Shown in pieces: positions 34,566 to 49,962 of a stretch of DNA of 50,533 bases (position 1 is its first letter; each line of letters begins with the position of its first letter). The translations under genes were made by a program, and so were the position numbers. Under the pieces are notes generated by a model. The model saw only the letters and a program-made list of their open reading frames with translations. It had not been told where the DNA came from and made no database searches. Location of the stretch: the NCBI GenBank assembly GCA_038240635.1, contig JBBRGS010000003.1:1-50533 (forward strand). The letters are read 5' to 3'. The stretch is from Armatimonadota bacterium. GTDB lineage: Bacteria > Armatimonadota > DTGP01 > JAHWJO01.

Positions 34566-35579
34566 TCAGGTGTGTTCACGGGCGTAGCGGACCAGCGCGT
34601 GGAAGTTGTCCGGCGGCGTGTCGCGCGTGACTTCGCAGCCCGCCCCCACGATGTAGCGGCGACCGGCCTGCCGATGACACTCCCCGACTGCCGCATATAC
34701 CGATTCAGGGGTTCCATCCTGCAGGACGCGCACGGGGTCCAGGTTGCCCAGCAGGGTCTGTTCCGGCCCCATGGCGGCGCGGCCTTCGGTCATCGGCGAG
34801 AGGAAGTCGAGGTCCACCAGTTCGCAGCCGAGGCGCCCCATCCCCTCGAGGATGCGGCGCGTGTCGCCACAGATGTGAAGCCGCGCGGGAACGCCCATCG
34901 CGTGGATGCCGTCCACCAGCCGCTGCTCGAACGGCCCGATGAGATTAGCCCAGGGGCGCGGCCCGGCGAGGGATGCGGCGGCGTCCCCGATGCCGATCTG
35001 CTCGGCGCCCGCGTCCACCTGCGCCTGAGCGAAGCGAAGTTCCATCTCCACGACGAACTCGAAGAGGCGCCGCACGAAGTCGGGCCGGTCGTGGAAGTCG
35101 GTCATGAGGGTGTTGATCCCGCGCAGGTCGGCGGCCTCGGCGGTGGGACCCTCCACCCAGCCTTCCACGAGTTTCGTCCCTCCCACGCGGCGCTGACTCA
35201 GGGCAATCGCATCAAGGCGATTCTTCATGCGGCTGCCTGGGCGGAGAGGATCAGGCAGCTCCAGTCGGTCGAGGGCCGCCGGATCGGCCAGCAGGGAGTT
35301 CGATTCGATCATGGAAGGCACGGCGTCGGGGTAGAAGACGACTTCGGCGCCGAGGTCCGCCGCCTCCACGCACGGGTCGGACATACTGTTCACGTAATCG
35401 AGATCAAATTCCTCGGCGACGCGGACCTGTCCCTCCACCAGCGTGCGGTAATCGGTGGCGTACTCCTGGTACGGCGCGCCGATTCGCGCCGCCGCAAATT
35501 GCATGGTGATGGCGAGGCACGGCAGGCTGTCCACGGGCCGCCCCGCCTCCATCGCCAACACGCGCTCCCTGCCGGTCAT
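34566..35579 (-). CDS. UroD/MtaA-family methyltransferase (MtaA/CmuA-like; paralogue 7)
   Basis: MTGRERV start; EAADLG, GP..EA..LRG, LHICG and GAGCEV (HxC…C Zn ligands), LGNLDP, TPPDN. Confidence 0.88.
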   Translation of the reverse strand: MTGRERVLAMEAGRPVDSLPCLAITMQFAAARIGAPYQEYATDYRTLVEGQVRVAEEFDLDYVNSMSDPCVEAADLGAEVVFYPDAVPSMIESNSLLADPAALDRLELPDPLRPGSRMKNRLDAIALSQRRVGGTKLVEGWVEGPTAEAADLRGINTLMTDFHDRPDFVRRLFEFVVEMELRFAQAQVDAGAEQIGIGDAAASLAGPRPWANLIGPFEQRLVDGIHAMGVPARLHICGDTRRILEGMGRLGCELVDLDFLSPMTEGRAAMGPEQTLLGNLDPVRVLQDGTPESVYAAVGECHRQAGRRYIVGAGCEVTRDTPPDNFHALVRYAREHT

Positions 35580-35622
35580 GACCGCCTCCTGTTTCCCATC
35601 GCCTGTGACGCCCCACTGATGC

Positions 35623-36693
35623 TCAGCGCCACGTCGCCACGCGCGCCACGAGGGCGTTGGCCTCTTCCGGCGAGTTCGCCCACGTCTGGAGCATGACGCC
35701 TTCGGGTCGCAGCGCCTCCATCATGGTGTCGAGTTCATCGGGGTCCACCACGATATGCATACCCTTTCGGGCGGCCTGAATCCTTTGAAAGACGGGAAGG
35801 TGGTCCGACGCCCGGCCTTTCCCCTCGCCCCAGACGAATTGGATGGCGTCGAGTTTGGGGATGTCCAGCAGCGCGTCGAGGTGCGGGAGAGCGCCCAAGC
35901 CATCGAGGTGGTAGATGGAGCGGTCCAGCCACTCCACTTCCTCGACGATCTCCGGGAGAAAGAATTCGCGGAACATCTTCGGGCTGACCATGATCGCCAC
36001 GTCGCACGAGGGGATATAGTAGCGCCCACGCGTGAAGAGCGGCAGCCAGCTGGTGGTGTGGAACTGCCCCGCCGCGTGTAGCAGCGCCTCCTGCGCCTCG
36101 TAGAAGGTGTAGAACGACGGCCGCAGCCGATCCATGAGCGCGTGAACCGCCTCCGGCTCGGTGATGAGGTCCATGCAGAGCAGTTGTGGCTCGCGCAGGG
36201 ACGCGGCGAGGTCTCCACCGGGGTGCAGGTCGGTGATGCCGACGAGGAATTTGCCCGCGCCGACCTCCAGCGCCAGCCGGGTCATCTCCAGCATCGTTTG
36301 AAAGTAGACGTTGTCGGGATGGAAGGCGACGGACGCGAGGTCAATGCCGTCGGCCATGGTCGGCTCGCTCCACGACGTGGTTTCGCCAAACTCCAGTTCC
36401 GCCCCGTACGCCGCCGAGAGGATTTCCGGTCCCAGGTTGGGATGGAAGTTGGGCAGCAGCTCACCCGCCCACCAGGTGTTCCGCGCCGCGATGTCCGCGC
36501 AGGCGACCTGAAACTCCACATCCATCCAGCGGTCGCGCAATGTGGCGTGTGATTTGACCGGGTAAGGCAGCGGATTTGGCCGTGGCGCGGCGACCTGGAG
36601 GCAGGGGCGGTCGAGTAATTCGCGGTTCCACCAGGCGTCGACGCGCGCGGCGGCGCGAGCGGCGTCCGGCTTGTATTCAAGGGTAAGGTCCAT
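35623..36693 (-). CDS. Divergent UroD-fold putative corrinoid methyltransferase (YHLDG type; paralogue 6)
   Basis: AWW…DRP, NLGP, D…MVSPKMFREFFLP, IYHLDG, LDAIQ. Confidence 0.7.
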   Translation of the reverse strand: MDLTLEYKPDAARAAARVDAWWNRELLDRPCLQVAAPRPNPLPYPVKSHATLRDRWMDVEFQVACADIAARNTWWAGELLPNFHPNLGPEILSAAYGAELEFGETTSWSEPTMADGIDLASVAFHPDNVYFQTMLEMTRLALEVGAGKFLVGITDLHPGGDLAASLREPQLLCMDLITEPEAVHALMDRLRPSFYTFYEAQEALLHAAGQFHTTSWLPLFTRGRYYIPSCDVAIMVSPKMFREFFLPEIVEEVEWLDRSIYHLDGLGALPHLDALLDIPKLDAIQFVWGEGKGRASDHLPVFQRIQAARKGMHIVVDPDELDTMMEALRPEGVMLQTWANSPEEANALVARVATWR

Positions 36694-37011
36694 TGCGTCT
36701 CCTGAGCGGCGGACTGCGGGTTAATGCGTTCAGGGTCAGCCGCTAATGCAGAGGAGACGAAGAGCGCAAAGGGCCGCAGAGAACTCCTTGAGGGAGGTCG
36801 GAGTGAGCTGAGAGAGTGTTCGCCGTAAGCGCCCTGGGGTGAGCCATGTGAGAGGAGGACAGGTATGCATCAGCGTGAGCCGTGGAATATTAGACGTAAA
36901 CACCCGTGGGACGAGCTGTGGGAATTGAGGCGAAAGCGCCTGCGTGGTCGTGCCGTGGCGCTGAACCCCACGGCTCTCCCCTGAGTCCCCTGTTGCCCCT
37001 CCCACATGGAA

Positions 37012-38082
37012 TCATTCGTAGCTCCCCAGCCGCTTCGCCAGCCCGACGATGTGCCGGAACCCTTCGAGGCTCACGCTCTCCGGCACCGAATGATCGGACG
37101 AGAAGATGTAGCCGCCCGACTCCTTCACCACCGGCAGGACCTTCCGCATCTCGGCTTCAATGGCGTCGAGGTCGTCCCACAGGACCGCGTTGATGCCCCC
37201 GTGAAGCACGAGGCGGTCGCCATAGGTTTGCTTCAGGGCGATGGGGTCCATCCCGGCCTTCACTTCGAGCGGGTTGAGGGCGTCCAGGCCGATTTCCACC
37301 AGTTCCGGCACGAACGGGTTCACATCGCCACACGAGTGGAGGTGCGCCTTGACCCCTTTGGCGTGCGCCCACTCAATCGCCCGTTGATGCACGGGCTTCA
37401 GGACCCGGCGATAAGTCCGCAGGGAGAAGAATTGCGAGTGCTTGTACCCCATATCGTCCGGCCAGAAGACGCTGTCGAAGGAGTATCCGGCGTCCCAGAC
37501 CCGATCCAGCAGGGCGAGATTCACATCGAGGAAGTGATTGAAGATGTCCGAGAGCCAGTCGGGGTCCTCCACCAGCGCGATCAGCACGGTTGTCGTGCCC
37601 ACCGTCCACGAATGGGTGATGTCGAAGCCGAACCAGAGTCCCGCCTGGAGCCAGCAGCCGTCGTCTCGCCATTTCGCGTAGTTCGCCTTCAGGTGGTCCC
37701 ACGGGATGCGGTCGTCGGAGGGGGTCATGCGGGCTTTGGCTTCAGCCCAGGTGTCGCGGTCGTGGATTTTGAAATCGAGGAATTCAGGGACGCCCCCGGT
37801 GTGCTTCCAGTCCTTCAGGGTGGCGCCGTACGCCGTGGTGTGGACACGGTATTCGTCGGTCTGTTCCAGCGTCTCCACCGGGTAGCGCGGGCTGATGTCC
37901 ACGCCGAGGTGCGCCACCTTGTCGAGATCGAAGTAGTCGCGGAAGTCCACGCCGTCGGGCATGCCTTCTCGGCGCCACCGTTCGAGGGTCGCGCCCCAGG
38001 GGTCATCAATGATCGGGATGCGGTCGGCGTCCCGGTGTTCAAACATCCGTTGAAAGCGTTCGCGAGAGGTCAGCGCCGTCAT
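37012..38082 (-). CDS. UroD-family putative corrinoid methyltransferase (paralogue 5)
   Basis: LTSRERF…DRIP, DDMG, LHSCG, LNPLE, LHGGI, GGYIFSSDHSV. Confidence 0.85.
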   Translation of the reverse strand: MTALTSRERFQRMFEHRDADRIPIIDDPWGATLERWRREGMPDGVDFRDYFDLDKVAHLGVDISPRYPVETLEQTDEYRVHTTAYGATLKDWKHTGGVPEFLDFKIHDRDTWAEAKARMTPSDDRIPWDHLKANYAKWRDDGCWLQAGLWFGFDITHSWTVGTTTVLIALVEDPDWLSDIFNHFLDVNLALLDRVWDAGYSFDSVFWPDDMGYKHSQFFSLRTYRRVLKPVHQRAIEWAHAKGVKAHLHSCGDVNPFVPELVEIGLDALNPLEVKAGMDPIALKQTYGDRLVLHGGINAVLWDDLDAIEAEMRKVLPVVKESGGYIFSSDHSVPESVSLEGFRHIVGLAKRLGSYE

Positions 38083-38143
38083 GAGAGGGTCTCCCGATGC
38101 GTGGGTCTGTCCCGTAATAGAGGGGGGGAAGGGGGATCGTGGG

Positions 38144-39247
38144 CTAAGCGTATCGGCCGTACTCGTGAACCGCTTCCACGAAGGCGACGATGTTCTCCCA
38201 GGGGACTTCCGGCTCCACGACGTGGGTCGGCGCGAGGAAGAGGCCGCCCCCCGCGCCCATCGTGGCGATGCGCTCCTTCACCACGGCGCGCACGTCGTTC
38301 GGAGTCCCAAACGGCAGCGTGGACTGCGTGCCCATCCCGCCCCAGAACGCGATGCGGTCGCCATAGCGGGCCTTCAGGGCGGCGCCGTCCATGCATTCGG
38401 GCTGAACGGGATTGAGGATGTCCACGCCGATCTCGATCAGGTCCTCCAGGAGGGGCGTCACGTCGCCGTCGCTGTGGTAGAAGATGAGGAGGTCGGGCTT
38501 CACGCGCTTCGCCGCCGCAATGACGCGCGCGAGCCGCCCCTTGAGCCACCGGCGCCACAGGGGGACGCGCATGAGCATCCCGCGCTGGCTCGCCACATCG
38601 TCGCCAAGGCGGATGATGTCGGCGCCCGCTTCGGCGTAGCGCGCGGCCTGGACCTCGCGCATGGCGGTGATGCGGTCGAGGAGCGTTTCGGCGAACTCGC
38701 TCCCTTCCAGGAAGTCCACCAGCAGCCGCTCCATGCTCCGCATATACCAGGCGATTTCAAAGATCGTGCATTCCAGCCCGGCGGTGGCGGCGAGTCCGGC
38801 GGCCTGGATGGCGGCGATCTGGCCGGGAAGATGCGCGTAGCGGTAATCGGCTTCGATGTCGGGCAGGGGGTAGTCGAGCGCGTCCTGACGGGTCTCCAGC
38901 CGCAGCATGGGATAGACGAAACCGGAGAGGTGAGAGTGCTGCGCGTCGCGGCTGTCCGTCGCCTGGTGGCCGATGCCCCATTCATCCACATGGGTGCGCG
39001 GCGGGAGATCAGGGTGATAGGCGGAAAAGTCGGTCGCCTGGCGCGTCCCGGCGATGTGGACCCCGCGCACGTCCACGCCGAAGTAGTCGTCGGGGCTGTC
39101 GGCGCCGGTGCGCTGGCGAAACTCCTCCAGCTTCGCCGGGGAGAAGCCCTGCGAGAAGTCGAACGGCACGCGATCCGGCGTCCGGCGTCGCATGGCGGTC
39201 ATGACCCGTTCCCTGCCGGACATTGTGGTGGAAGAGGCGGCGCTCAT
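38144..39247 (-). CDS. UroD-family putative corrinoid methyltransferase (paralogue 4)
   Basis: MSGRERV…PDRVP, DEWG, GDDVA, YHSDG, ILNPVQPECMD, FWGG, APTHVV.PEVPWEN. Confidence 0.88.
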   Translation of the reverse strand: MSAASSTTMSGRERVMTAMRRRTPDRVPFDFSQGFSPAKLEEFRQRTGADSPDDYFGVDVRGVHIAGTRQATDFSAYHPDLPPRTHVDEWGIGHQATDSRDAQHSHLSGFVYPMLRLETRQDALDYPLPDIEADYRYAHLPGQIAAIQAAGLAATAGLECTIFEIAWYMRSMERLLVDFLEGSEFAETLLDRITAMREVQAARYAEAGADIIRLGDDVASQRGMLMRVPLWRRWLKGRLARVIAAAKRVKPDLLIFYHSDGDVTPLLEDLIEIGVDILNPVQPECMDGAALKARYGDRIAFWGGMGTQSTLPFGTPNDVRAVVKERIATMGAGGGLFLAPTHVVEPEVPWENIVAFVEAVHEYGRYA

Positions 39248-40071
39248 GGATAGGCCCCCTTTCGGTTATCGAGATCGTCGTCAGACGGGAGAGAAGCATC
39301 GGGATTGGTGTCGCCGGAGGAGACGTCCGGCCTCGGTTCAAAAGCGATGATCGACTCGTTGAAGGTGGGGATAATGCGCCGCCCTGGAGGGATGACGAGG
39401 AATTCCTCTTCGGACCAGTCGCCGTTCACCAGGTGGTAGATGAGGCGCATGTCGCCCCGTTCCCTGCGGAAGGTCCAGCCGCGCGATTCGGCGTCCGCGC
39501 GGGCTTGGCGTTCATAGGCGTCGCTCGGCTCGATCCCCATTTCGATGAAAGTGAAGCCGGTGTAGTAGCGCGTCTGGTTGCACAGGGTTTCATACAGGAA
39601 GGCGGCGTTCTCCTCGCCGTACTTCGCCACCAGCGAGGCGTAGTCGCTGTCCATGCCGGTCGCCCTCTGGATGGAGAGCTGGCTCAGTTCGCCGAGGTCG
39701 TCGCCGCGCTCCATCCAGCCGGAAGTCTTGAAGTAGACGCCGGGGTTGTCATAGAAGTAGGTCTCGTATCGCTCCTTGCCGCCCAGGAACAGCGTGATGC
39801 AGTCGTGGGCGCGAGGCAGCACCAGCGGCGCCGACCCCGCCTGAATCCCCGCGAGGCCGTTGTTGCAAAGGCCATACCCCAGCAAAATCGCGTCGTAGTG
39901 GGTGCCCTCGTGGTCGTCCACCACATCCTGAATGCGGGAGCGCATCAGGTTCGCGCCCATATCGTGAAGGCCTTTGGGCAGGAATTCGACATCCACAATG
40001 TGCGGCGATTGCGAGACGGCATGACACATCTCACGGTAGAAGACTTCACAACTGATTAACTTGTAACGCAT
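39244..40071 (-). CDS. DUF1638-domain protein
   Basis: ISCEVF.RE, GLH, ILLGYGLCNNGL, PRAHDCITLFLG, YFKTSGW; 4-nt overlap with the next gene. Confidence 0.85.
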   Translation of the reverse strand: MRYKLISCEVFYREMCHAVSQSPHIVDVEFLPKGLHDMGANLMRSRIQDVVDDHEGTHYDAILLGYGLCNNGLAGIQAGSAPLVLPRAHDCITLFLGGKERYETYFYDNPGVYFKTSGWMERGDDLGELSQLSIQRATGMDSDYASLVAKYGEENAAFLYETLCNQTRYYTGFTFIEMGIEPSDAYERQARADAESRGWTFRRERGDMRLIYHLVNGDWSEEEFLVIPPGRRIIPTFNESIIAFEPRPDVSSGDTNPDASLPSDDDLDNRKGAYP

Positions 40072-40111
40072 TGAACTCTCGTTTCGTTGAAAAAGTAGAG
40101 TGGACACAGGC

Positions 40112-41134
40112 TTACGGCTTACGCCCTACGAAGGCGGCGGTGCGGCCCAGCAGGTCCATCTGGATGACGCCGGTGAAGCCCGCCCCCTTCATCCAGCCGA
40201 TGATCTCCCGGTCGGTCCAGGCCGATCCATGGTCGGTGTTGGCGAGCATATTCAGCGAGAAGAGGGCCGCGTGCAGCGGCGCCGTCCGGTCCTCCTCCAA
40301 CGCGAATTCGTGGATGACGAGGCGACCGCCGGGGGCGAGGGCGTCGAACGCCTTACGGATGAGCGCGGCGCACTCCTCCCGTGAATTGCTGTGCAGGACC
40401 TGCGACATGAGGGCCAGGTCGTACCCGGAGGGCAGGGGGTCGGCGTTGTAGTCGCCTGCCACGATGTCCACCCGGTCGCCGAGGCCGCGCGCGGCGATAA
40501 ACTCCCGCGCGATGGCCAGCGTGTCGGGCAGATCCAAGATCGTGGCGGAGAGCGACGGGTTGCGGTGAAGGGCGGCGTAGCAGTAGGTGCCTGGCCCGCC
40601 GCCGATGTCGAGGAAGCGGGAGACGCGGCTCACATCGATGCGGTCCATCAGCGTTTCGGCGATGGGGGTCGCGTTGTCGTGCATCCCCTCAATGAAGTGG
40701 CGCGTGCGGTCGGCGTCCGGGGACGGCTCGGCGCGAGGGCCTTCCCGACGGGGTTTGCCAGCGCGGAGGACGTGAGGCAGGTCGCCCCATGCGAGCCACA
40801 TCCCCTGACTGTGCCGCACGATGTTGCCCATGTAGCCCGGTCGGCCTGGGACGAGCGTCTCGGCGGAGAGGGGTGTGAGGCCGTAGCGGTGCGCGCGCTT
40901 CGTGAGGAGGCCCAGGGCGACTGCCGCATCAAGGAGCATGGCGGTGGCGCGCGGGTCGGTCCCCAGCAATTCCGTCACCTCCTCGGCGGTGTGATGGCCG
41001 TCCGCCAGCGCGGGAAAGACGCCGACATCGTTCGCGGTGAACAGCACGGCGGACTTCCAGAAGCCGTACATCAACTCGGAGAGGGCGGCCCGGGCGCGAC
41101 CGGCGTCTTCGGAAGGGTGAAGTTCGTTCGTCAC
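40112..41134 (-). CDS. SAM-dependent O-methyltransferase (Methyltransf_2 with N-terminal dimerisation domain)
   Basis: FLDIGGGPG, LDLP, AGDY, SQVLH, LAPGGRLVIHE; GGAGG RBS before GTG. Confidence 0.88.
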   Translation of the reverse strand: MTNELHPSEDAGRARAALSELMYGFWKSAVLFTANDVGVFPALADGHHTAEEVTELLGTDPRATAMLLDAAVALGLLTKRAHRYGLTPLSAETLVPGRPGYMGNIVRHSQGMWLAWGDLPHVLRAGKPRREGPRAEPSPDADRTRHFIEGMHDNATPIAETLMDRIDVSRVSRFLDIGGGPGTYCYAALHRNPSLSATILDLPDTLAIAREFIAARGLGDRVDIVAGDYNADPLPSGYDLALMSQVLHSNSREECAALIRKAFDALAPGGRLVIHEFALEEDRTAPLHAALFSLNMLANTDHGSAWTDREIIGWMKGAGFTGVIQMDLLGRTAAFVGRKP

Positions 41135-41176
41135 GGGTTCCTCCGTGGTATGGGGCGACAGGATGAAGGAAGATCA

Positions 41177-41330
41177 GTGATTACTCCCCTCGGTCTAAAG
41201 ACCGGGGGCTTCTACGGATTGGATACCGACAGAATCTAATCCGATTCTGAGTATGTTCAGAGCCGCGTTGTGGTCTCGATGGAGTTCAAGACCGCCACAG
41301 TCGCAGGAGCGCCACCGTTCCGAAAGGAGT
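41177..41330 (-). ncRNA. Predicted TnpB omega/reRNA scaffold overlapping the tnpB 3' end (5' boundary approximate)
   Basis: Established IS605 architecture; right-end hairpin ending in TCAC, with the guide read from the flank beyond 41177. Confidence 0.55.
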
Positions 41331-42313
41331 TTCTTCTTCCTGTGACCGCAACGCGAACAATCCTGCGAAGTGTAGGCGGGATTGACCGCTGTCATCGTCC
41401 TGCCAGCGTCTTCCGCTTTGTAGGTGAGGCAGACGAAGAACCCGCTCCATGCCGCGTCGTGGATGCTTTTAGAGAGGCAATGATTGTGAACCATCCGGTT
41501 GACACGAAGGTCTTCAACACAGATAGTTTGGTAGCGATTCACCACTTTGCGCGATTGCTGATGAATGAAGTCCCGGTGAAGGTTCGCGATGCGCTCGTGA
41601 ACCTTCGCCACTCGCCTGCGTTGTTTCGCTCGGTCTTTGGAACCCTTTTCGGCTTTGGAAAGACGACGCTGAACCTTCGCCAGAGCCTTCTCTTCCCTGC
41701 GGAAGAAGCGAGGGTTCTCAACCTGCGACCCGTCTGAAAACGTGGCGAACGATTCCAGCCCCACATCAATCCCAACGGCTTCATCAGACGGCGAAAGAGG
41801 GGTCGCTTCAGTCTCCACCGAGATGCCGGCGAACCACTTCCCAGTAGCGGTTCGCCGGATACCGCAGGTTTTGATCACGCCTTCGATGGGGCGGTGGAGC
41901 TTGATCCTGAAGTGGCCCAGCTTCGAGAGATACAGTTTGCCATCCTTGAAGCCGTAACCGCTTTGGGGGAAGCAGAAGGAGTCGTAGCGGTGGAACCCCC
42001 GGAAGCGTGGATAGCCCGGCTTCTCCCCCGCCTTTACCCTGCGAAAAAAGGCTTTGAAGGCAAGGTCAATCCGAACGGCGACATTCTGCAACACCTGAGA
42101 GTGAACGCTGGAGAGCGAAGGCCGCTCCGCTTTCAAGTCAGGCAATCGCTCGTGTCGTTCGTAGAGCGAGAGGGGCGCCCGTGTTTCTTCGTATCGGTTT
42201 TTTCGCTCTTCCAACAGGCGGTTGTAGAGCCATCGACATTCGTTCAGGGTTTCCTGAAGAAGTCGCGCCTGCTTCCTGGAGGGATAGAGCCGATACTGGA
42301 AGGCTTTACGCAT
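41195..42313 (-). CDS. tnpB: RNA-guided endonuclease TnpB
   Basis: KAFQYRLYP HTH start, KPGYPRFR, RuvC GIDVG / VEDL / RDHNAA, YTSQDCSRCG zinc ribbon. Confidence 0.96.
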   Translation of the reverse strand: MRKAFQYRLYPSRKQARLLQETLNECRWLYNRLLEERKNRYEETRAPLSLYERHERLPDLKAERPSLSSVHSQVLQNVAVRIDLAFKAFFRRVKAGEKPGYPRFRGFHRYDSFCFPQSGYGFKDGKLYLSKLGHFRIKLHRPIEGVIKTCGIRRTATGKWFAGISVETEATPLSPSDEAVGIDVGLESFATFSDGSQVENPRFFRREEKALAKVQRRLSKAEKGSKDRAKQRRRVAKVHERIANLHRDFIHQQSRKVVNRYQTICVEDLRVNRMVHNHCLSKSIHDAAWSGFFVCLTYKAEDAGRTMTAVNPAYTSQDCSRCGHRKKKLLSERWRSCDCGGLELHRDHNAALNILRIGLDSVGIQSVEAPGL

Positions 42314-42417
42314 ACTAACATCCTAGGGAAAATCTTTGGCTAAAGCCAGTAGTCGTTTCATCCACAGCCGTTAAAACGGCGTGGCTTTCACGGGCTAAAG
42401 CCCTTTTCTGTAAACGG

Positions 42418-43509
42418 TCAGGCTGCGTAGGTACACTCGCGGGCGGCGCGGCCGTATGCTTCGAGGTTCTCCGGCGGCACATGGAAGAAGTGGTCGCTGG
42501 GGGACATGATGTAGCCGCCTCCCGATCCGAACGCCTCGAACAGGTCGAAGACGTGCGCCCGAACCTCTTCCGGCGTGCCGACTTCCAGCGCCGAATTCTG
42601 GTCCAGCCCGCCAATGAGCGCCACTCGGTCGCCGATGCGCGCCTTCATCTCGGCGGGTCGGGCATCGCCCCCCATGCCTGGCGGGGTGAGGGTTTCGGAG
42701 GCGTCGCAGCCGTTCTCAACGATCAGGTCAAGGATCGGCATCATCCCCCCGCAGGTGTGATACACCGCTATGTGGCCTACGGCGTGGAGGGCGTCGTGCA
42801 TGTGGCGGTCGTAAGGCAGGCAGAACTCACGGTAGTACTTCGGGGAGATGACGGTGGAGGAGGCCGCCCCGCCGCCCGTCTCAATCAGGTCGTAGGGCGC
42901 GCCGTCCAGACTCTCCTCAATGAAGCGGGCCTTCTTCTCCCACAGCGCGCGGAGGAAGGCATGAACCCAGTCCGGGTGGTCGGCGGCCTCCATAATGAGT
43001 TCCTGCGTCCCAAAGAGGCATGTGGCGTGCTGCCAGCATCCAGCCTGGTCGCCCCACACGCCGCCGCGCAGGATTCCGTTTTCACCCAGAACCTCGCGGT
43101 CCCGGCGGATGGCATCGTGATCGAGGGCGGGGACGGGGAGGTACTTTTCAATCAGCTCCAGGTCTTCGTGCCGTTTCACCAGAGGGGTGATGTTCCAGGT
43201 GGTAACGGCGTTCTGGCCTACCATGTTCTCCAGCGTTCCGCCGGGGGTGGCCACGGTGACGTGAATCCTCCGCTCGCCTTCAGGGGTATCGAGGTTGCGG
43301 TATTCCACCCGCCAGTTCGGGTCGTTCACCGGCAGACCGTGGTAGCGGGTGATTGAAGCGTCCAGCCCGAAGCGCAGGAAAGCCTCGAGGTCGCTGATAC
43401 CGCCCAGGTGAGCGTTCAAATGGTAAGTCTGCCACTGGTGAACGGTGGCAGGGACGCGGTCGGGTGTTTCAAGGCGGAGGGCCGTCAGCAGGCGTTCGCG
43501 GGAAGTCAT
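42418..43509 (-). CDS. UroD-family putative corrinoid methyltransferase (paralogue 3)
   Basis: MTSRERLL…PDRVP, TPGG.L, ISPKYYREFCLPYD, YHTCG, ETLTPP.MGGD, LIGGLDQ, SPSDHFF. Confidence 0.88.
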   Translation of the reverse strand: MTSRERLLTALRLETPDRVPATVHQWQTYHLNAHLGGISDLEAFLRFGLDASITRYHGLPVNDPNWRVEYRNLDTPEGERRIHVTVATPGGTLENMVGQNAVTTWNITPLVKRHEDLELIEKYLPVPALDHDAIRRDREVLGENGILRGGVWGDQAGCWQHATCLFGTQELIMEAADHPDWVHAFLRALWEKKARFIEESLDGAPYDLIETGGGAASSTVISPKYYREFCLPYDRHMHDALHAVGHIAVYHTCGGMMPILDLIVENGCDASETLTPPGMGGDARPAEMKARIGDRVALIGGLDQNSALEVGTPEEVRAHVFDLFEAFGSGGGYIMSPSDHFFHVPPENLEAYGRAARECTYAA

Positions 43510-43544
43510 GGTAGGTGGGGGGAGGGCTGCGCCAGGTGGAAGAG

Positions 43545-43688
43545 GGATTCGACACGGAGAACACAGAGAGCCACGGAGAACACAGAGAGAAACCCGGAGA
43601 GACCCCGGTAAAACGAGGTGTCGAGCAAGGTCTTCAGGGAGTTCTCTGTGGCCCTCTGTGAATTCTCTGGGTCCTCCATGTCGAATCC
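43545..43688. repeat. Palindromic element built of CAC(A/G)GAG short tandem units
   Basis: Outer inverted repeat ggattcgacacggag / ctccatgtcgaatcc (14/15); direct repeat cacggagaacacagagag x2; complementary ctctgtg units on the right arm. Confidence 0.8.
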
Positions 43689-43714
43689 TCATTTGCCCTG
43701 GAACGGATGGTTGA

Positions 43715-44878
43715 TTATTTCGGGGCGGTGGGGCGGATGTTGGGCAGGCCCTTGCCCCAGACTCGCTTGATGCGGTCCAGGTAGAAGAGGTAGTTGTCGA
43801 GCGGGACGTCGGGCGGCACGCGGTGGTCGGGCGTGGGGATGAAACCGCCCTCCTCCACAAGGGGCGCGAGGCGATCCACTTCGCGGGCGATGTCGTCCTT
43901 CGACGCGGCGAGAGTCCGCTTGCTCACGCCACCGATCATCAGCAGGTCCCGGCCATACTGGCGGCGATAAGCGACCGGGTCGGCGCCCCACGTCCCCACC
44001 TCAATGGGGAACATGCAGTTGACGCCGGCCTTCAGCCACAGCGGCAGGAGCATCTTCATATCGCCGTCGCAGTCAATCACCACCACGTCCACGCCGTACC
44101 GCTTCAGCAGCGCCGTGATGCGCTCGTACTGCGGCACGAGGACCTGCTCGAAAATTTTTGGCGACAGCAGTGGCCCCGCCTTGTAGCACATGTCCTCCCA
44201 CATCGAGCAGTACTCGAATTCGATCCCGGATTCGAGCGCGGGAGTGATCGAGTCAATGATACAGGTCGCTACCGTCTCCACCATCTCCACGAAGAGCGGG
44301 CGGTCGTCAAAGAGGAGCATGGAGAGGTGTTCCACGCTCATCCAGTCCCGTATCCAGCCGTAGAGACTGCCGCCGTTGATGCTGAGGGGATAATCGCGGG
44401 CCGGGTCCTTCAGGCGGGCGACGTGGGCGTCCCAGTCTTTGGGGTAGCGGTTGGGGTCCCTGCCGTTGAGGCGCCATTTGAACTCGCGCTCCCAGCTGTC
44501 GCGGTCCTTCAGGGTGTGGTCGAGGTGCCGGGGAATGGAGCCGAGGAACTTCCCCTCCTCCTTCACGACGCCTTCGCTGTCCCGCACAATGCGCGTCTCG
44601 CCCTTGTCCTCCAGGACCTCGAAGGGAAAGCCGGGACAAAGGCCGACGTGGACCGGCGCGCCCGCCCATTGGGGGTCCATGCCGAAGAAGACGTCGGGAT
44701 TGGCGCCTTTGGGGTAGCCTTGCTCCTCCCACAGGACCAGTGTCTCTTCCCAGAAGCCGAAGTCCATGATGGGCGAGCGGTCGCGGGGCTGATAATGCAT
44801 GGTGGCGCGAAATCGTTCGCGGGCGTTCATGGACACAGGGACGCTACCGATCATCGGGTTGGGGACGGAGGAGGTCAT
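43715..44878 (-). CDS. UroD-family putative corrinoid methyltransferase (paralogue 2)
   Basis: MNARERF…DRSP, WEDMCYKAGPLLSP, IDCDG, MFPIE, IGGVSK, GGFIPTPDHRVPPDV. Confidence 0.85.
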   Translation of the reverse strand: MTSSVPNPMIGSVPVSMNARERFRATMHYQPRDRSPIMDFGFWEETLVLWEEQGYPKGANPDVFFGMDPQWAGAPVHVGLCPGFPFEVLEDKGETRIVRDSEGVVKEEGKFLGSIPRHLDHTLKDRDSWEREFKWRLNGRDPNRYPKDWDAHVARLKDPARDYPLSINGGSLYGWIRDWMSVEHLSMLLFDDRPLFVEMVETVATCIIDSITPALESGIEFEYCSMWEDMCYKAGPLLSPKIFEQVLVPQYERITALLKRYGVDVVVIDCDGDMKMLLPLWLKAGVNCMFPIEVGTWGADPVAYRRQYGRDLLMIGGVSKRTLAASKDDIAREVDRLAPLVEEGGFIPTPDHRVPPDVPLDNYLFYLDRIKRVWGKGLPNIRPTAPK

Positions 44879-45759
44879 GCCGCTCTCGCTTTCAGGGCTT
44901 CATTCAGGGAGCTGATGAATTCGGGGCCGCTGCCGCAACAGCCACCGATGAAGGTCGCGCCCGCGTCTACCAGTTCCAGCGCGGACTGCGCGAAGGCCTG
45001 GGGAGTGACGGTGTAGATGGCGGCGCCGTCCACGAGCTGGGGCAGCCCAGCGTTCGGCTTCACCCAGAGCGGCAGGGATGTCGCCTCGCGGAAGCGGCGC
45101 ACGAGCGGCGTCATCGTGTCCGGCCCAACGCCGCAGTTGAGGCCGACGGCGCTGGCTCCCGCGTCCGTGAGCGCTGTGGCGGCCTCCTCCACGCGAACGC
45201 CCATCATCGTGCGGTCTTTCTGGCGCCCCGCGTCAAAGACCATTGAGACGACGGCGGGCAGCCCGGCGTCCTGAGCGGCGCGGAGGGCGAGGGTCGCTTC
45301 CGCGAGGTCCGACATGGTTTCGATCACCACGGCGTCCACGCCACCTTCGGCGAGGCCGGCCATCTGGTCGAGGTAGGCGGTCAGCACGTCGTCCTCGGTG
45401 ACTTCCCCGGCGGCCAGCAGCTTGCCGGTCGGGCCGACGGAGGCGAAGACGGCCACCTCAGTTCCAGCGACGGCGTTGCGGGAAAGGGTCGCGCCGAGAC
45501 GGTTCACTTCGCGGGAGCGGTCGCCGAGGCCGTGGCGATCCAGCGTGATGCGACTGGCCCCGAAGGTATTGGTGAGGATCACGCGACTCCCGGCATCGAC
45601 ATACGCCCGCGCGACGGCTTCCACCTCGTCGGGATGGGTGAGGTTCCAGGCGTCGGGGCAGGCGCCGATAGGGAGGCCGCGCTGCTGGAGCTGAGTGCCC
45701 CACGCGCCATCGGTGAGGATGGGGGCCGCCGTCAGGAGGGCGTCAAACTTGTCAGGCAT
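44875..45759 (-). CDS. Stand-alone homocysteine S-methyltransferase domain (MetH Hcy-binding-like)
   Basis: LTDGAWGT, AGS..ILTNTFGA, SVGPTG, IETMSD, GLNC, PNAGLP, GGCCG (three Zn cysteines). Confidence 0.92.
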   Translation of the reverse strand: MPDKFDALLTAAPILTDGAWGTQLQQRGLPIGACPDAWNLTHPDEVEAVARAYVDAGSRVILTNTFGASRITLDRHGLGDRSREVNRLGATLSRNAVAGTEVAVFASVGPTGKLLAAGEVTEDDVLTAYLDQMAGLAEGGVDAVVIETMSDLAEATLALRAAQDAGLPAVVSMVFDAGRQKDRTMMGVRVEEAATALTDAGASAVGLNCGVGPDTMTPLVRRFREATSLPLWVKPNAGLPQLVDGAAIYTVTPQAFAQSALELVDAGATFIGGCCGSGPEFISSLNEALKARAA

Positions 45760-46988
45760 TCGGCTTCCTTCCGGATTTCAGGAGAGTAGTAGCGCCGGCA
45801 GGCGTGAAGCATCGCTTCGGTGTTCTCCAGCGGCGTGCCCGGAGCCAGGTTGTTGCCTTCGCGGAGGATAAAGCGGCCACTCTTCGCCACGCCGGTGTCC
45901 AGGATGCGGGTCACTTCGTCGGCCACCTGGGCGGGGCTGGCGGTGCGGAGCAGCTCGATATGGGGTCCGCCCTGGATCGTCACGTCCGGCCCCATGTTCT
46001 CGCGCAGGCGCCCGAAGTCCACCGGGAAGCCGGTGTCGAAGGTCTGGATGTTCAACTCATCGCGAAGGGTGGGGAAGTGGCGCGTAGCGTCGCCGCACAG
46101 GTGAATGGAGCGGGGGGCGTCGGTGGCGAAGGCGTCGTACAGGCGGCGGTGATGCGGCAGCACATGCTCGCGGTACATCGGGGTGGAGATGAGCGCGACG
46201 CTGTCGTCGGCCATGCCCCAGCCCTCCTGCGGCCAGGGGAGATGGAACCGGGTTCTCCACGCCTTCATGCGTTCAGTAGTGGCGGTGGTGATAAACTCGA
46301 ACAGGGTCGCCAGCCGTTCGGGTTCGGCGGCCATGGCGGCGCAGACGAACTCGGGGCCGAAGAGATTGCAGGCCACCGTCATGGGGCCGTCGGTCCCGAA
46401 GCCGCAACCGGGGGGATTCACATGAATGGGGCGGTCGAGGAACCGCGCGTCGTCGCTGAGTTCGAGGAATCGCTCGTGGAACTCCAGCGCCCTGGCCATG
46501 ACGGAGGCAAAGGGGTCCGGCGGGCCGTTTTCCATGACCCGCTCCGGGCAGTCGGAGAAGGCGGGGCGGGTATCGGGCACGTTGTCGGCGAGATACTCCA
46601 CCGGGCACCCGAACCACGCGGCCTCGTAATAGTTCTGGAAGTCCACGCTCGCTGTCCACCGGTCGGGCAGGCCGAGTTCGGCGTCCTGCAGCAGATTGAA
46701 GCGGCTCCAGCGCTGGAACCGGACCTGCGCCTCCAGCATCACTTCGGGGCGTTCGGAGTAGGTTTGGAAGTCCAGGCCGTTGGGATTCGCGGCGGGATTG
46801 AACATGAAGTAACGGGTGTTGACGCCCAGAATTACCGGCGGACGGAGCGGCGCGCCCTTGTGGAAGGCGTCCCAGACGGCCTGGTTTTCAGCGTTGTGAG
46901 CCACCAGGTCAGCCTCTGCGAGGCGATCCGGCGTCGGGGTCAGGGTGAGGAAAGGAGAGGCGCGAAAGAGGTCGCTGGAAGAGGGCAT
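45732..46988 (-). CDS. UroD-family putative corrinoid methyltransferase (paralogue 1)
   Basis: EAAWFG, TDGP.T.AC, ADDS.ALIS..MYRE.VLP, IHLCG, FDTGF, IQGGP, REGNNLAPGTPLEN; start uncertain (46988 or 47045). Confidence 0.8.
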   Translation of the reverse strand: MPSSSDLFRASPFLTLTPTPDRLAEADLVAHNAENQAVWDAFHKGAPLRPPVILGVNTRYFMFNPAANPNGLDFQTYSERPEVMLEAQVRFQRWSRFNLLQDAELGLPDRWTASVDFQNYYEAAWFGCPVEYLADNVPDTRPAFSDCPERVMENGPPDPFASVMARALEFHERFLELSDDARFLDRPIHVNPPGCGFGTDGPMTVACNLFGPEFVCAAMAAEPERLATLFEFITTATTERMKAWRTRFHLPWPQEGWGMADDSVALISTPMYREHVLPHHRRLYDAFATDAPRSIHLCGDATRHFPTLRDELNIQTFDTGFPVDFGRLRENMGPDVTIQGGPHIELLRTASPAQVADEVTRILDTGVAKSGRFILREGNNLAPGTPLENTEAMLHACRRYYSPEIRKEAECLTSLTPS

Positions 46989-47106
46989 GAGGAGTCTCTG
47001 GGACCCGGCGCGCTTTTCGCCGGGTTTCGCGGATGCGGAGCGCATGGGAGGACAACCGCGAAGGCGCCCTCCCCCTTCACGAACGGGGCAACACAGGCCC
47101 CCGCAG

Positions 47107-47739
47107 TTAACCCACCAACTCCCGCGCGGTGTGAACGGCGCCGCTGGCGTTGTCGCTGAAGCCATCGGCCCCGATCTCGTCAGCGTACCGCTGCGTGACG
47201 GGCGCGCCGCCGATCATCACCTTCACCTGATCGCGCAGGCCGGTTTCCTCCAGCAGATCAATCGTCTTCTTCATGCCCGGCATCGTGGTGGTGAGCAGGG
47301 CGCTGATGGCGATGACCTGCGCGCCTTTCTCCTTCACCGCCTGCACGAACTGCTCCGGACTCACGTCCACGCCGAGGTCAATCACCTCGAAGCCGCCGCC
47401 TTCGAGCATGGAAGCGACAAGGTTCTTGCCGATATCGTGAAGGTCCCCCTTGACGGTGCCGATGGCGACTTTGCCCGCCGGTTCCGCGCCACTCTCGACG
47501 AGGAGGGGACGGATCAGTTGCAGGGCGCCTTTCATGGCGCGGGCGGAGATCAGCAGCTCCGGCACGAAGTACTCGTTCGTCTCAAACAGTTTCCCGACCT
47601 CATCCATTGCGGGGATCATGGTATCGGTGAGGAGCGATTGCGGGTCCACGCCTTCCGCGAGGGCTTCCTGCGTGACGCGCTTCGCCGTGGGGGTGTCGCC
47701 TTCAAGAATGGCGGTGTAGAGGGATTTCAGGTCGGCCAT
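47107..47739 (-). CDS. Stand-alone corrinoid (B12-binding) protein
   Basis: Cap domain IPAMDEVG..F…YFVPELL; GTVKGDLHDIGKN (DxHxxG), SALLTTT, IGGAP. Confidence 0.95.
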   Translation of the reverse strand: MADLKSLYTAILEGDTPTAKRVTQEALAEGVDPQSLLTDTMIPAMDEVGKLFETNEYFVPELLISARAMKGALQLIRPLLVESGAEPAGKVAIGTVKGDLHDIGKNLVASMLEGGGFEVIDLGVDVSPEQFVQAVKEKGAQVIAISALLTTTMPGMKKTIDLLEETGLRDQVKVMIGGAPVTQRYADEIGADGFSDNASGAVHTARELVG

Positions 47740-48084
47740 GGTGAAAACCTTTCGGAGAAACCGGAACAAGCCCCCGGTTGCGAGGAAGGAGCATGCCCTG
47801 AACGGGTCCTCATGGAAGTTAGGCCCAAGCCGGACTCGCGCGCATGCTCACCAAACGATAGCGCGGTTGAACGGAAAACGGAATAGTTTTTTGATAACAA
47901 GGACGACATTGCGAGGAAGAATCTCCAGACGAGAGGTGAAAAAGGAAGCGGGTGGCCCATGGGGCCTGCTCACGCTGGCTGGCGCACGCCGATACTCGTC
48001 ATGACCCAGGACCCCTATCGCCGGGTTACGTCATGCTTTGACGAAGCGCTCTCACTTTGCATGAACGGTTAAGGAGGCCTCCAC

Positions 48085-49962
48085 ATGGCGCCGTCGCTCG
48101 AACCCACCGAACCCAGGGCGTTGTACCTCGAAGGAGGGGAGGTCCGCTTCCAGCCGTCCGGGCGTACCGTCCATTTCTCGAAGGGCGAGGACATGCTCAC
48201 TCTTGCTCGGCGTGCGCATGTTCGTTTGTATCAGACTTGCAATGGCGCGGGAACGTGCGGCAAGTGTGTCGTTACGGTGAACGATCCCGTCTCGCCCCTC
48301 ACGGAGGAGGAGCGCACAGCCCTCACGGAAGAGCAGCGGGCCGACGGCGCTCGGCTGGCGTGTCAGGTCGTACCCCTGGGCGCCGTGGTGGTCACCGTGC
48401 CGGAAACGGGGGACCTGGACATTCTCGCGGAGGGCCTCCACCTGAATATGGCTTTGAGGCCGCGCGTGACGAAGGAAGCCGTGGAGGTCCCGCCGCCATC
48501 GCTCCACCGTCCCGCCGCCGATCTGGCGCGATTGCAGGCCCGCCTCGGCGAGCGAACAATCCTCGCGCCCCATCCGGCGATGCTTCAGTCGCTGCCGCTC
48601 GCCCTTGAGCAGGGAAGCGGCCGGGTGACGGTGGTCAGGGCGGGTGGCGTGATCGTGGCGGTGGAACCCGGCGACACGCGCGACAGCATCTATGGGATGG
48701 CGTTTGACATCGGCACCACCACCGTCGTTGGCTACCTGCGGGACCTCAACACGGGCGAACTGGTGGAAGTCGCGGCGTCGGTCAACCCTCAAACGGCGTT
48801 TGGGGCGGACGTAATCGCCCGTATCGAGCACGCCTCGCGCACGCCGCAGGGCCTCTCGGAGTTGCGCCGGGCCATCATTCAATGTCTCAATCGGCTCATC
48901 GCCGAGGCGTGCGGCGCGGCGAAAATCTCCCCGCAGGCGGTGTATGATCTCACGCTGGCGGGCAACACCACCATGCTGCATCTGGCCCTGGGCGTTCCGG
49001 TGGACAGCATCGCGCGGGCGCCCTATGCCCCGGCGGTCCTCCAGGCGCTGGAGATGCCCGCCACCGATCTCTGGCTGAAGGCACACCCTAGGGCGCGCGT
49101 GAGCCTTCTGCCGCACGTCGCCGCCTACGTGGGCGCCGACATCGTGGCCGACCTGCTCTCCTCCAATCTCATGCGCCGTGATCGGATGACGCTGCTCCTC
49201 GATTTTGGCACCAACGCCGAGATCGTCCTGGGTAGCCGAAAGCGAACGGTCGCCTGCGCGGCGGCGGCGGGGCCATGCTTCGAGGGCGGCAATATCTCGT
49301 GCGGCATGAGGGCCGCACGCGGGGCGATCTACGGCGTCCGACTGGAAGACGACCTGTTGAAGTGGGACACCATCGGCGACGCCGCGCCCGCCGGGCTGTG
49401 CGGCACCGGCCTGATTGACCTTGTGGCCCTGCTGTGCGATCACGGCGTCATCGATGAAGCGGGCAAACTTCTGCCGCCGGAGCGCGCGCCCCACGCCCCG
49501 GCGGACCTGCGCGACCGCGTGGAGGGCGAAGGGCGCCAACTGCGCTTCCGGCTCGCGGCGGCGGAGGAGTCGGCGGTGGGAACGGCGCTTTACCTCACCC
49601 AGCGCGACATCCGCGAGTTGCAGGCCGCCAAAGCCGCCATCGCCGCCGGGGTGCGCCTGTTGTGCGAACGCCTTGGCATCGACCCCAACGCCATTAGCGA
49701 GACCCTCATGGCGGGCGCTTTCGGCAACTCCATTCGCACGGAGAGCGGGATACGGCTGGGGCTGCTGCCGCGCGGGCCACACACGCGCTACCGCTCCATC
49801 GGGAACGCGGCGGGTGTCGGCGCGCAGATGGCGCTGCTCTCCGGCGCGGCGCGGCGACGGGCGGAGCGGATCGCCGAGCGGGTGGAGTATGTCGAGCTGT
49901 CGAGTGAGAAAAGCTTCACCGACGTGTTCGCCGAGGAGATGTACTTCCCCCCGAACCGCTGA
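48085..49962 (+). CDS. RACo/RamA-type reductive activator of corrinoid proteins (2Fe-2S + ASKHA, DUF4445)
   Basis: CNGAGTCGKC…RLAC ferredoxin; DIGTTT, NPQ..FGADVIARI, GNTTMLH, DFGTNAE, AAGPCFEG, GLCGTG, TQRDIRELQAAKAAI, AGAFG. Confidence 0.93.
   Translation: MAPSLEPTEPRALYLEGGEVRFQPSGRTVHFSKGEDMLTLARRAHVRLYQTCNGAGTCGKCVVTVNDPVSPLTEEERTALTEEQRADGARLACQVVPLGAVVVTVPETGDLDILAEGLHLNMALRPRVTKEAVEVPPPSLHRPAADLARLQARLGERTILAPHPAMLQSLPLALEQGSGRVTVVRAGGVIVAVEPGDTRDSIYGMAFDIGTTTVVGYLRDLNTGELVEVAASVNPQTAFGADVIARIEHASRTPQGLSELRRAIIQCLNRLIAEACGAAKISPQAVYDLTLAGNTTMLHLALGVPVDSIARAPYAPAVLQALEMPATDLWLKAHPRARVSLLPHVAAYVGADIVADLLSSNLMRRDRMTLLLDFGTNAEIVLGSRKRTVACAAAAGPCFEGGNISCGMRAARGAIYGVRLEDDLLKWDTIGDAAPAGLCGTGLIDLVALLCDHGVIDEAGKLLPPERAPHAPADLRDRVEGEGRQLRFRLAAAEESAVGTALYLTQRDIRELQAAKAAIAAGVRLLCERLGIDPNAISETLMAGAFGNSIRTESGIRLGLLPRGPHTRYRSIGNAAGVGAQMALLSGAARRRAERIAERVEYVELSSEKSFTDVFAEEMYFPPNR

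Follow-up and report, generated by a model that had tools for sequence, protein, structure and literature searches.

Described corrinoid systems and the Armatimonadota cluster

The four-component logic of corrinoid-dependent methyl transfer is textbook knowledge: one methyltransferase acts on the substrate, a corrinoid protein carries the methyl group, a second methyltransferase serves the acceptor, and an activator driven by ATP services the carrier. It underlies both the methanol:coenzyme M methyltransferase MtaABC of methanogens and the O-demethylases of acetogens. The same logic is recognizable in a gene cluster located on a 50,533-nucleotide stretch of DNA (hereafter the window) of an Armatimonadota bacterium (GenBank assembly GCA_038240635.1, contig JBBRGS010000003.1, positions 1 to 50,533), where seven paralogues of the uroporphyrinogen decarboxylase (UroD) fold, designated U1 to U7, are encoded together with a corrinoid carrier protein (CoP), a stand-alone homocysteine S-methyltransferase (HcyMT), a DUF1638 protein and a RACo/RamA-type activator. 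The genome (G000 in our set) is a metagenome-assembled genome (MAG) of 4.1 Mb in 400 contigs with 93.2% completeness, in which the window corresponds to contig C3. On balance, and with some reservation, we favour the view that this cluster is a corrinoid methyl-transfer hub with several UroD-fold inputs, one carrier and methionine as the exit. Like MtaABC, it is linked to MtaA, which U7, U4 and U6 resemble most in structure or sequence, and to MtaB, which is encoded in related clusters. Unlike MtaABC and the acetogen systems, in which the methyl group passes to coenzyme M (CoM) or tetrahydrofolate, the proposed acceptor is homocysteine, many UroD-fold paralogues accompany one carrier, the host is aerobic, and the cut-offs of the MtaA/CmuA models are not reached.

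A second point of comparison is the split methionine synthase/MtgBCDE of the roseobacters Phaeobacter inhibens and Ruegeria pomeroyi, which is accompanied by a RamA-like activator and DUF1638 (10.1101/192971; PMC12478193). As far as the accessible text of these reports describes that system, it has in common with the window cluster an aerobic host, one stand-alone CoP serving several methyltransferases, and the presence of CoP, a homocysteine-binding MtgE-type subunit, RamA/RACo and DUF1638. The two differ in that no stand-alone pterin-binding MtgD was found in the window cluster or genome, in that the proposed donors are seven UroD-fold proteins instead of the MttB-family MtgB, and in that a complete MetH coexists in the genome, so that the cluster is not an essential methionine synthase.

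The third described relative is the type 1 mlp cluster, reported mostly from Firmicutes and from obligate anaerobes, where the methyl group was proposed to end up in methionine; the Mlp proteins almost always carry a His-Cys-Cys site and share >25% identity with CoM methyltransferases (PMC10418091). Judged by the accessible text of that study, such clusters resemble ours in combining several MtaA-like UroD-superfamily proteins, one CoP and a RACE-type activator with no folate methyltransferase. They differ from it in that the window host is an aerobe, six of the seven paralogues lack His-Cys-Cys, and HcyMT and DUF1638, conserved here, are not mentioned there for mlp. The names 'Chloroflexi', 'Armatimonadetes' and 'Planctomycetes' are absent from the main text of PMC10418091, and its supplementary cluster lists may include related clusters. 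Since clusters with multiple MtaA-like proteins have already been published, as has a split methionine synthase accompanied by RamA and DUF1638, the architecture has more precedent than the initial annotation of the window implied. Our literature search, with most subscription journals and supplements lying outside it, returned no paper on clusters of UroD-fold paralogues with HcyMT in Armatimonadota, Chloroflexota, Planctomycetota or Verrucomicrobiota. What is new is the combination of the split-synthase and mlp ideas, the non-thiol zinc sites, the aerobic hosts from four phyla and the size of the paralogue set, as well as the U6 family, for which Pfam lacks a model despite 2154 representative members at E<=0.001.

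Conservation of the cluster in four phyla

Synteny was surveyed by tblastn of the window proteins against 57 loci, together with fetched regions of further relatives (L058-L062 and L065 among them); the nearest relatives of the window proteins were encoded by MAGs of Chthonomonadaceae, Chthonomonadales and Fimbriimonadales. CoP, HcyMT, RACo or DUF1638 genes were present at 14 of the 49 loci anchored on U2, and clusters were recovered from Armatimonadota, Chloroflexota, Verrucomicrobiota and Planctomycetota. Near-complete versions occur in a Chthonomonadaceae MAG (L014) and at L058, L059 and L065. The order at L065 matches that of the window (U7-U6-U5-U4-DUF1638-HcyMT...U1-CoP), and L058 and L059 share the order CoP...U1-U1-HcyMT-U2-U3...DUF1638. 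Shorter clusters were found in Litorilinea (L016), a member of the Verrucomicrobiia (L028, with eight U genes, HcyMT and RACo), a member of the Fimbriimonadaceae (L033), a Verrucomicrobiota MAG (L040) and a member of the Phycisphaeraceae (L041). Orthologues of U1 (57-66% identity) lie inside the clusters of relatives, those of U3 (65-75% identity) come after U2 at L014, L058 and L059, an orthologue of U5 with 79% identity is present at L065, and HcyMT adjoins U2 or RACo in many relatives. The survey thus ties the paralogues to CoP, RACo and HcyMT across four phyla, as the initial annotation had supposed from the window alone.

Some of these clusters contain additional methyltransferase modules. 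The gene following CoP at L014 is a bona fide MtaB (PF12176, 542.8 bits; NCBIfam MtaB, 409.5 bits), and MtaB is also encoded in the clusters of L058, L060 and L061. At L011, CoP is followed by genes for an MTHFR-like protein, a pterin-binding methyltransferase and formate-tetrahydrofolate ligase (FTHFS), and then by HcyMT and UroD-like genes; the same MTHFR/pterin methyltransferase/FTHFS trio is carried by L062. Because the carrier of these relatives serves a methanol donor together with tetrahydrofolate and homocysteine acceptors, there is a strong circumstantial case for a multi-input corrinoid system, and the multi-input design first suggested for the window fits the donor MtaB within the clusters of relatives.

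Two further features of L011 were recorded. Its cluster is flanked (92-1628 and 14303-15436) by genes for a response regulator, a sigma-54 activator and a GntR/periplasmic-binding-type regulator, and an FMN reductase gene adjoins DUF1638.

Co-occurrence and predicted complex

The distribution of the components was followed in 41 related genomes of the phylum, which, being kin, are not independent, so that the counts describe a pattern and not a statistic. U2-like matches, which capture the whole non-HemE UroD-like set, were obtained in 27 of the 41 genomes. RACo (RACo_C_ter) was detected in exactly those 27 genomes, and not in any of the remaining 14. The same 27 genomes encode a stand-alone corrinoid protein (E<=6e-53). 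In the 14 negative genomes all corrinoid matches were weaker, with best E from 9.6e-42 to 7.6e-6; among the matches listed, most fall in long frames of MetH size, and G009 has only a 155-aa fragment. DUF1638 is encoded in 24 of the 27 positive and in none of the 14 negative genomes. A stand-alone HcyMT was found at E<=1e-57 in 26 positive genomes and at 1e-46 in the 27th. Of the 14 negatives, 13 have weaker HcyMT-like frames, with best E between 1.8e-50 and 4.4e-25 and with varying lengths that come to ~280-430 aa in four cases only; no HcyMT-like frame was found in G009. Some genomes contain 26-42 U2-like matches against 1-2 RACo and 1-4 corrinoid proteins, and this group seems generally to have many methyltransferases per carrier.

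A predicted complex of U2 with CoP reached a score of 0.75, against 0.01 in the best of 3 controls; among solved complexes 58 of 80 reach the mark applied to such scores, as do 2 of 110 mismatched pairs, a calibration that is only rough because our own alignments were used. At least 86% of the contacts agreed between model runs, and the pLDDT of the partner was at least 83. The modelled interface involves the cap helix of the carrier (residues 55-67) and residues 103-106 beside the cobalt-ligand His101, and the model supports binding of CoP by U2. The link of the paralogues to one CoP, RACo and HcyMT proposed in the initial annotation is supported by the synteny, by the 27/14 phyletic match and by this predicted complex.

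Relationships of the UroD-fold paralogues

The initial annotation counted seven paralogues of the UroD/MtaA fold. Six of them pass the Pfam URO-D cut-off of 23.9 bits (46.6-195.6 bits), and the seventh, U6, stays under it (16.6 bits, E 0.004) and is placed in the superfamily by its predicted fold only. The AlphaFold (AF2) model of U6 is confident (pLDDT 95.5), and its top Foldseek match is the methylcobalamin:CoM methyltransferase MtaA 4ay8_A (E 1.1e-10, TM 0.62-0.64), followed by UroD structures (E 1e-9 to 8e-7). U6 gave neither a hemE nor an MtaA/CmuA match in NCBIfam; its family numbers 422 representative proteins even at E<=1e-30.

Among the NCBIfam models (cut-offs: hemE TIGR01464, 302.95 bits; MtaA/CmuA TIGR01463, 235.4 bits, and PRK06252, 244 bits), the MtaA/CmuA type outscored hemE in U7 (TIGR01463 143.3 vs 64.1 bits), U3 (TIGR01463 84.8 vs 15.3 bits), U1 (PRK06252 56.6 vs 19.5 bits) and U4 (TIGR01463 55.3 vs 16.7 bits). 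U5 (PRK06252, 30.4 bits) and U2 (MtaA/CmuA-type, 18.3 bits) had no hemE match at all. In the PDB sequence search, U7 and U4 matched MtaA best (U4: 4ay7, 45.1 bits). The paralogues are superfamily relatives of MtaA/CmuA, not members at the curated threshold.

A quick maximum-likelihood IQ-TREE run on 72 UroD-fold sequences with SH-aLRT support, which took in UroD-fold genes from contigs C2, C10, C23 and C329 of the window genome, grouped six HemE sequences in a single clade (support 100) with U1-U7 all outside it. Each of the seven fell into its own well-supported clade with orthologues from other genomes (U1 clade, support 100). Identity among the paralogues is only 21-28% where they can be aligned (28% for U5 and U2), and their orthologues in other genomes share 54-79% identity; the paralogues are old separate lineages rather than recent duplicates.

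The identification of any paralogue as HemE was rejected, since the best of them scores 64.1 bits against the cut-off of 302.95 and true HemE forms a separate clade. This agrees with the initial annotation, as does its expectation of a misleading label, public databases naming U7 orthologues 'uroporphyrinogen decarboxylase family protein'. An orthologue of U7 is on record from an isolate of Limisphaera. The best hemE score across the window genome is 63.7 bits, and true HemE (395-429 bits) is found in only 9 of the 41 related genomes. As a separate observation, HemE was not found in this 93%-complete MAG, which encodes a haem-copper oxidase.

Active-site residues

In the UroD superfamily, S-methyltransferases bind zinc through His-Cys-Cys, and carboxylates or non-ligands replace Cys in O-methyltransferases (Kountz & Balskus, PMC10418091). 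U7, the most MtaA-like paralogue, aligns with MtaA 4ay7 at LHICG and GC and has the complete His-x-Cys...Cys triad, with H235, C237 and C315 invariant in 22 orthologues. None of U1-U6 has this triad. In U2, W227 E228 D229, D269, D271, D351 and H352 are invariant in 33 orthologues (D-C-D...D-H), and in U6 H262-L-D264 is invariant. The remaining motifs are H-L-C...N in U1, H-T-C...D/H in U3, H-S-D...H in U4 and H-S-C...H in U5. The motifs of U1-U6 were read from a MAFFT alignment of highly divergent sequences, in which the third ligand is uncertain. Taken together, the residues fit one thiol-directed enzyme and six aimed at harder atoms, most simply oxygen. Because of its His-Cys-Cys site, U7 most likely handles a methyl-thiol compound, either as donor or as second acceptor, and for most of the paralogues the zinc-site residues point to O-methyl groups, not S-methyl groups, as the probable target.

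These sites bear on the idea that the cluster performs methyl-sulfur or methyl-selenium salvage as in type 1 mlp, with all paralogues acting on S- or Se-methyl compounds and the methyl group ending in methionine. The architecture of several MtaA-like proteins, CoP and a RACE-type activator with no folate methyltransferase is that of mlp in the accessible account of those clusters, the His-Cys-Cys site of U7 suits such substrates, and HcyMT provides a direct link to methionine. That site is, however, present in only one of the seven paralogues, the others having Asp, His or Asn at the ligand positions, and type 1 clusters are reported, in the part of the literature available, from obligate anaerobes only, whereas the window genome encodes a haem-copper oxidase. 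Salvage by the whole set is very unlikely in our estimation.

Carrier, activator, homocysteine methyltransferase and DUF1638

CoP contains the DxHxxG motif in its translation and scores 207.8 bits with TIGR02370, against a cut-off of 215.3. Its scores with two MtgC models (211 and 195 bits; cut-offs 370 and 310) indicate likeness and give no equivalog call. It is the sole stand-alone corrinoid protein found in the genome, the other strong match being a domain of MetH. All four Pfam domains of RACo (Fer2, linker, middle and C-terminal ASKHA) score above their cut-offs, and the AcsV-type NCBIfam model gives 448.8 bits, under its cut-off of 800. A second RACo fragment, 94% identical to the window RACo over 157 aa, lies at a contig end (G000:C263, 4297-4767) and probably stems from heterogeneity among strains or from a duplicate that collapsed in the MAG.

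HcyMT matched PRK08645 (261.9 bits), PRK07534 (233.6), metH (171.1) and the MmuM-type PRK09485 (107.6), in all cases under the cut-offs, and is proposed as the methyl exit to methionine. The DUF1638 gene probably starts at the ATG at 40071. Its product carries C8, H36, C69 and an R-A-H-D-C motif (H89, D90, C91) that are invariant in 14 sequences, a pattern suggestive of a site for a metal or cluster. The AF2 model (mean pLDDT 75.6) matched no PDB structure in Foldseek at E<=0.001. In Phaeobacter, DUF1638 is needed for split-MetH function according to the accessible text of the report (Price et al., 10.1101/192971), and the window protein is a putative accessory of corrinoid methyltransferase systems.

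Genome context and proposed methyl route

The window genome encodes subunit I of a haem-copper oxidase (C20, 501.1 bits), from which we conclude that the organism is an aerobe, and a complete four-module MetH including the S-adenosylmethionine (SAM)-dependent reactivation domain. Given both, the cluster is regarded as an additional route and not as the housekeeping methionine synthase. MtaB was not found in the genome, nor was a stand-alone pterin methyltransferase, either in the PF00809 search or with the L011 pterin methyltransferase as query, which finds the MetH domain only. The PF00809 matches consist of that MetH domain and a 312-aa frame (296 bits) that is probably dihydropteroate synthase. 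This leaves HcyMT as the sole exit evident in the genome, and homocysteine would be the main acceptor.

Other potential users of the carrier are encoded outside the window. A gene of the MTTB family (trimethylamine/glycine-betaine type) is located on C234 (610-1398, 69.7 bits), and its product is another candidate user of the single CoP. Six more UroD-fold genes lie on C1, C2, C10, C23 and C136 (detected by Pfam) and on C329 (U6-like); as only one stand-alone carrier was found, their products probably use the same CoP.

We infer that the UroD-fold proteins act as MT1, that is, as methyl donors to CoP. In the route that we propose, RACo would keep the single CoP in the active Co(I) state, probably aided by DUF1638; substrate-specific UroD-fold methyltransferases (U1-U6 and perhaps U7) would methylate CoP; and the stand-alone HcyMT would demethylate it, forming methionine. 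The hub would thereby serve as an extra route for harvesting environmental methyl groups.

Direction of transfer and alternative readings

A number of points weigh against this route. MtaA and MtbA of methanogens, members of the UroD family, are acceptors (MT2) and not donors, which concerns the direction of transfer. None of the seven paralogues reaches the curated MtaA/CmuA cut-offs, all being far below them. In the PDB sequence search, UroD (28.7 bits) scored slightly above MtaA (23.5 bits) for U3, the U2 profile matched UroD alone, and weakly (25.2 bits), and U1 and U5 matched nothing; with PDB-level matches weak or absent, the methyltransferase label of U1-U5 rests on context. Corrinoid-system genes were not seen within the sequence covered at 35 of the 49 U2-orthologue loci, and U2-type proteins may have a corrinoid-independent activity. 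Searches of the 93%-complete genome for CbiC and CobS found neither, so that the corrinoid is probably imported, although with 400 contigs such absences, here as elsewhere in this MAG, are weak evidence. Finally, stoichiometric catabolic demethylation into methionine would need homocysteine regeneration.

The acceptor role of MtaA leads to a reading with one input and many outputs, in which the UroD-fold proteins are MT2 enzymes moving the methyl group from CoP to thiols, hydroxyls or metalloids, and the carrier is loaded from methanol (by MtaB in relatives), from methyl-tetrahydrofolate or by an MTTB-family enzyme. Such a reading draws on the fact that MtaA (4ay7/4ay8), the characterised close structural relative, is an MT2, on the thiol-type His-Cys-Cys site of U7, on the dedicated donor MtaB within the clusters of relatives, and on the MTTB-family gene on C234. 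It has to contend with the window genome, where neither MtaB nor a stand-alone pterin methyltransferase was found, and with the conserved partners, HcyMT and the pterin methyltransferases of relatives, which are classical acceptor modules. Cells normally use SAM, not corrinoid proteins, for methylating many different acceptors. Moreover, OdmB, VdmB and CmuA, which belong to the UroD superfamily, are donors in the accessible account (PMC10418091). We regard the one-input arrangement as unlikely.

The U2 loci at which corrinoid genes were not seen bear on a different alternative, namely that CoP, HcyMT, RACo and DUF1638 form a split or alternative methionine synthase, and that most of the UroD-fold neighbours act in the catabolism of sugars or aromatics independently of corrinoids, e.g. 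as decarboxylases. The neighbours of these loci were tallied over 131 open reading frames (ORFs), which came from 27 of the 35 (all but L024 and L049 to L055), giving BPD_transp_1 in 6 ORFs, Hist_deacetyl in 5, GH31, Amidohydro_1 and AP_endonuc_2 in 4 each, and PhyH, SBP and AraC in 3 each. The set, which includes sugar-type ABC permeases and TIM barrels resembling sugar isomerases, is heterogeneous, yet compatible with carbohydrate-type substrates, which is suggestive. That the tallied U2 genes sit among carbohydrate-type genes with no corrinoid genes nearby agrees with the split synthase, as does the roughly equal distance of U1-U5 from HemE and MtaA by sequence; and in the accessible description the genetically defined split-MetH set joins CoP, DUF1638 and a RamA-like protein to two subunits, one of HcyMT type and one for the pterin. 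The pterin-binding subunit is nevertheless needed there, and none that stands alone was found in the window genome, which moreover has a complete MetH with its own activation domain. If the UroD-fold genes were mere neighbours, the exact match of UroD-like and RACo/CoP presence (27 genomes with, 14 without), the 4-nt coding overlaps, a gene order kept over four phyla and a U2-CoP complex model that passes the mark would be hard to accommodate. We consider this alternative distinctly unlikely and retain the multi-input hub as the preferred interpretation.

Locus organization and neighbouring genes

The cluster consists of 13 genes between PgeF and PurE (Table 1), 12 on the minus strand (34566-47739) and RACo divergent on the plus strand. 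In the direction of transcription, the minus-strand order is CoP-U1-HcyMT-U2-U3-TnpB-O-methyltransferase-DUF1638-U4-U5-U6-U7. All genes named in the initial annotation were recovered at the positions it had given, by Pfam or NCBIfam profile matches or, in the case of U6, by predicted fold, and the limits it had set to the cluster hold, PgeF and PurE being unrelated genes on either side. U4/DUF1638 and U2/HcyMT overlap by 4 nt, and with the first ATG taken as start the overlap of U1/HcyMT amounts to 28 nt. For U1 and U3 the longest ORF is too long, since codon-position GC falls upstream of 46988 and 43515, respectively. The flanks within the window contain PgeF, PurE and polysaccharide-synthesis genes, with neither a transporter nor a hydrolase near the cluster.

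Table 1. Position and profile evidence of the cluster genes and the two flanking genes in the window.
Gene	Product	Position	Strand	Evidence
RACo	RACo/RamA-type ATP-dependent reductive activator, N-terminal 2Fe-2S ferredoxin	48085-49962	+	RACo_C_ter 262.1, Raco_middle 197.7, RACo_linker 57.8, Fer2 40.6 bits
CoP	Corrinoid (B12) carrier protein, MtgC/MtaC-like	47107-47739	-	B12-binding 107.5, B12-binding_2 84.3 bits
U1	UroD-fold methyltransferase-like paralogue	45732-46988	-	URO-D 95.5 bits
HcyMT	Stand-alone homocysteine S-methyltransferase, MtgE/BHMT-like	44875-45759	-	PF02574 240.2 bits
U2	UroD-fold paralogue	43715-44878	-	URO-D 46.6 bits
U3	UroD-fold paralogue	42418-43515	-	URO-D 83.0 bits
TnpB	TnpB of IS200/IS605, without TnpA	41195-42313	-	OrfB_IS605 97.9, Cas12f1-like_TNB 72.1, HTH_OrfB_IS605 49.7 bits
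O-methyltransferase	SAM-dependent O-methyltransferase, PF00891 type	40112-41134	-	Methyltransf_2 112.3, Dimerisation 57.9 bits
DUF1638	DUF1638 protein	39244-40107	-	PF07796 119.2 bits
U4	UroD-fold paralogue	38144-39247	-	URO-D 84.2 bits
U5	UroD-fold paralogue	37012-38082	-	URO-D 57.5 bits
U6	UroD/MtaA fold, family without Pfam model	35623-36693	-	URO-D 16.6 bits (below cut-off); AF2 + Foldseek
U7	Most MtaA-like paralogue	34566-35579	-	URO-D 195.6 bits
PgeF	Flanking gene	33763-34539
PurE	Flanking gene	49983-50489

The O-methyltransferase and TnpB genes lie between U3 and DUF1638, a place where relatives have nothing or another UroD-like gene. The initial annotation had included the SAM-dependent O-methyltransferase among the cluster members. 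No homologue was detected at any of the 57 related loci, and homologues occur in 18 of the 41 genomes on other contigs, some of them in genomes free of the system; as it is absent from the 57 loci and distributed independently of the system, we reject it as a component. One homologue lies beside a U2-like gene (G017:C208). In a family-level relative without the system (G001:C316), a homologue at 4184-5149 was observed ~1.7 kb from MetH (7-2439).

The TnpB gene has a GC3 of 0.66, against 0.81-0.88 in its neighbours, is missing at the equivalent place in related clusters, and is probably a lineage-specific insertion. Carriage of U3 as its cargo was considered and is not supported, the GC3 of U3 (0.81) being native and syntenic orthologues existing. 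In the contigs of two DNA runs covering 39000-44500, no joint skipping the insertion sequence was found, and contig breaks over this interval occur only inside TnpB and at a short high-depth piece (43553-43589).

Several further observations were made in the window. The U2-U3 spacer (43516-43714) contains an imperfect inverted repeat. A 37-nt contig of one DNA run, with a depth of 25.6 vs ~9, maps to 43553-43589 and resembles a short repeated element; blastn-short against the assembled genome found a single partial copy of the spacer repeat, of 28 nt, on C64. Farther from the cluster, three tandem DUF1559 genes of the N-terminally methylated (type IV pilin-like) kind, with lower GC (0.56-0.59), are located at 24522-27355, and a 791-aa FG-GAP repeat protein with a C-terminal dockerin type I domain is encoded at 19005-21380.

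Biological significance

Beyond the window, we advance as a tentative possibility that aerobic carbohydrate scavengers of the Armatimonadota and of parts of the Chloroflexota, Planctomycetota and Verrucomicrobiota run an undescribed methyl-harvesting hub. Diverged UroD-fold methyltransferases (up to 42 U2-like matches per genome, the U6 family included) would load one CoP serviced by RACo and DUF1638, the methyl group would pass to homocysteine and, in some lineages, to tetrahydrofolate, and O-demethylation of methylated sugars or other methoxy compounds would fall to the paralogues that lack His-Cys-Cys. If this is true, there would be a B12-dependent, oxygen-independent demethylation of carbohydrates beside the known P450 route, and the methyl groups of methylated organic matter and of methanol would enter methionine directly. 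A considerable share of the genes labelled 'uroporphyrinogen decarboxylase family' or 'hypothetical' in four widespread heterotrophic phyla would then encode substrate-specific B12-dependent methyltransferases, and aerobic soil and sediment bacteria would have an unrecognised demand for corrinoids. Comprising seven candidate donors around a single carrier, activator and acceptor enzyme, the cluster is a compact and testable set that could help in finding new demethylase specificities and the role of DUF1638.

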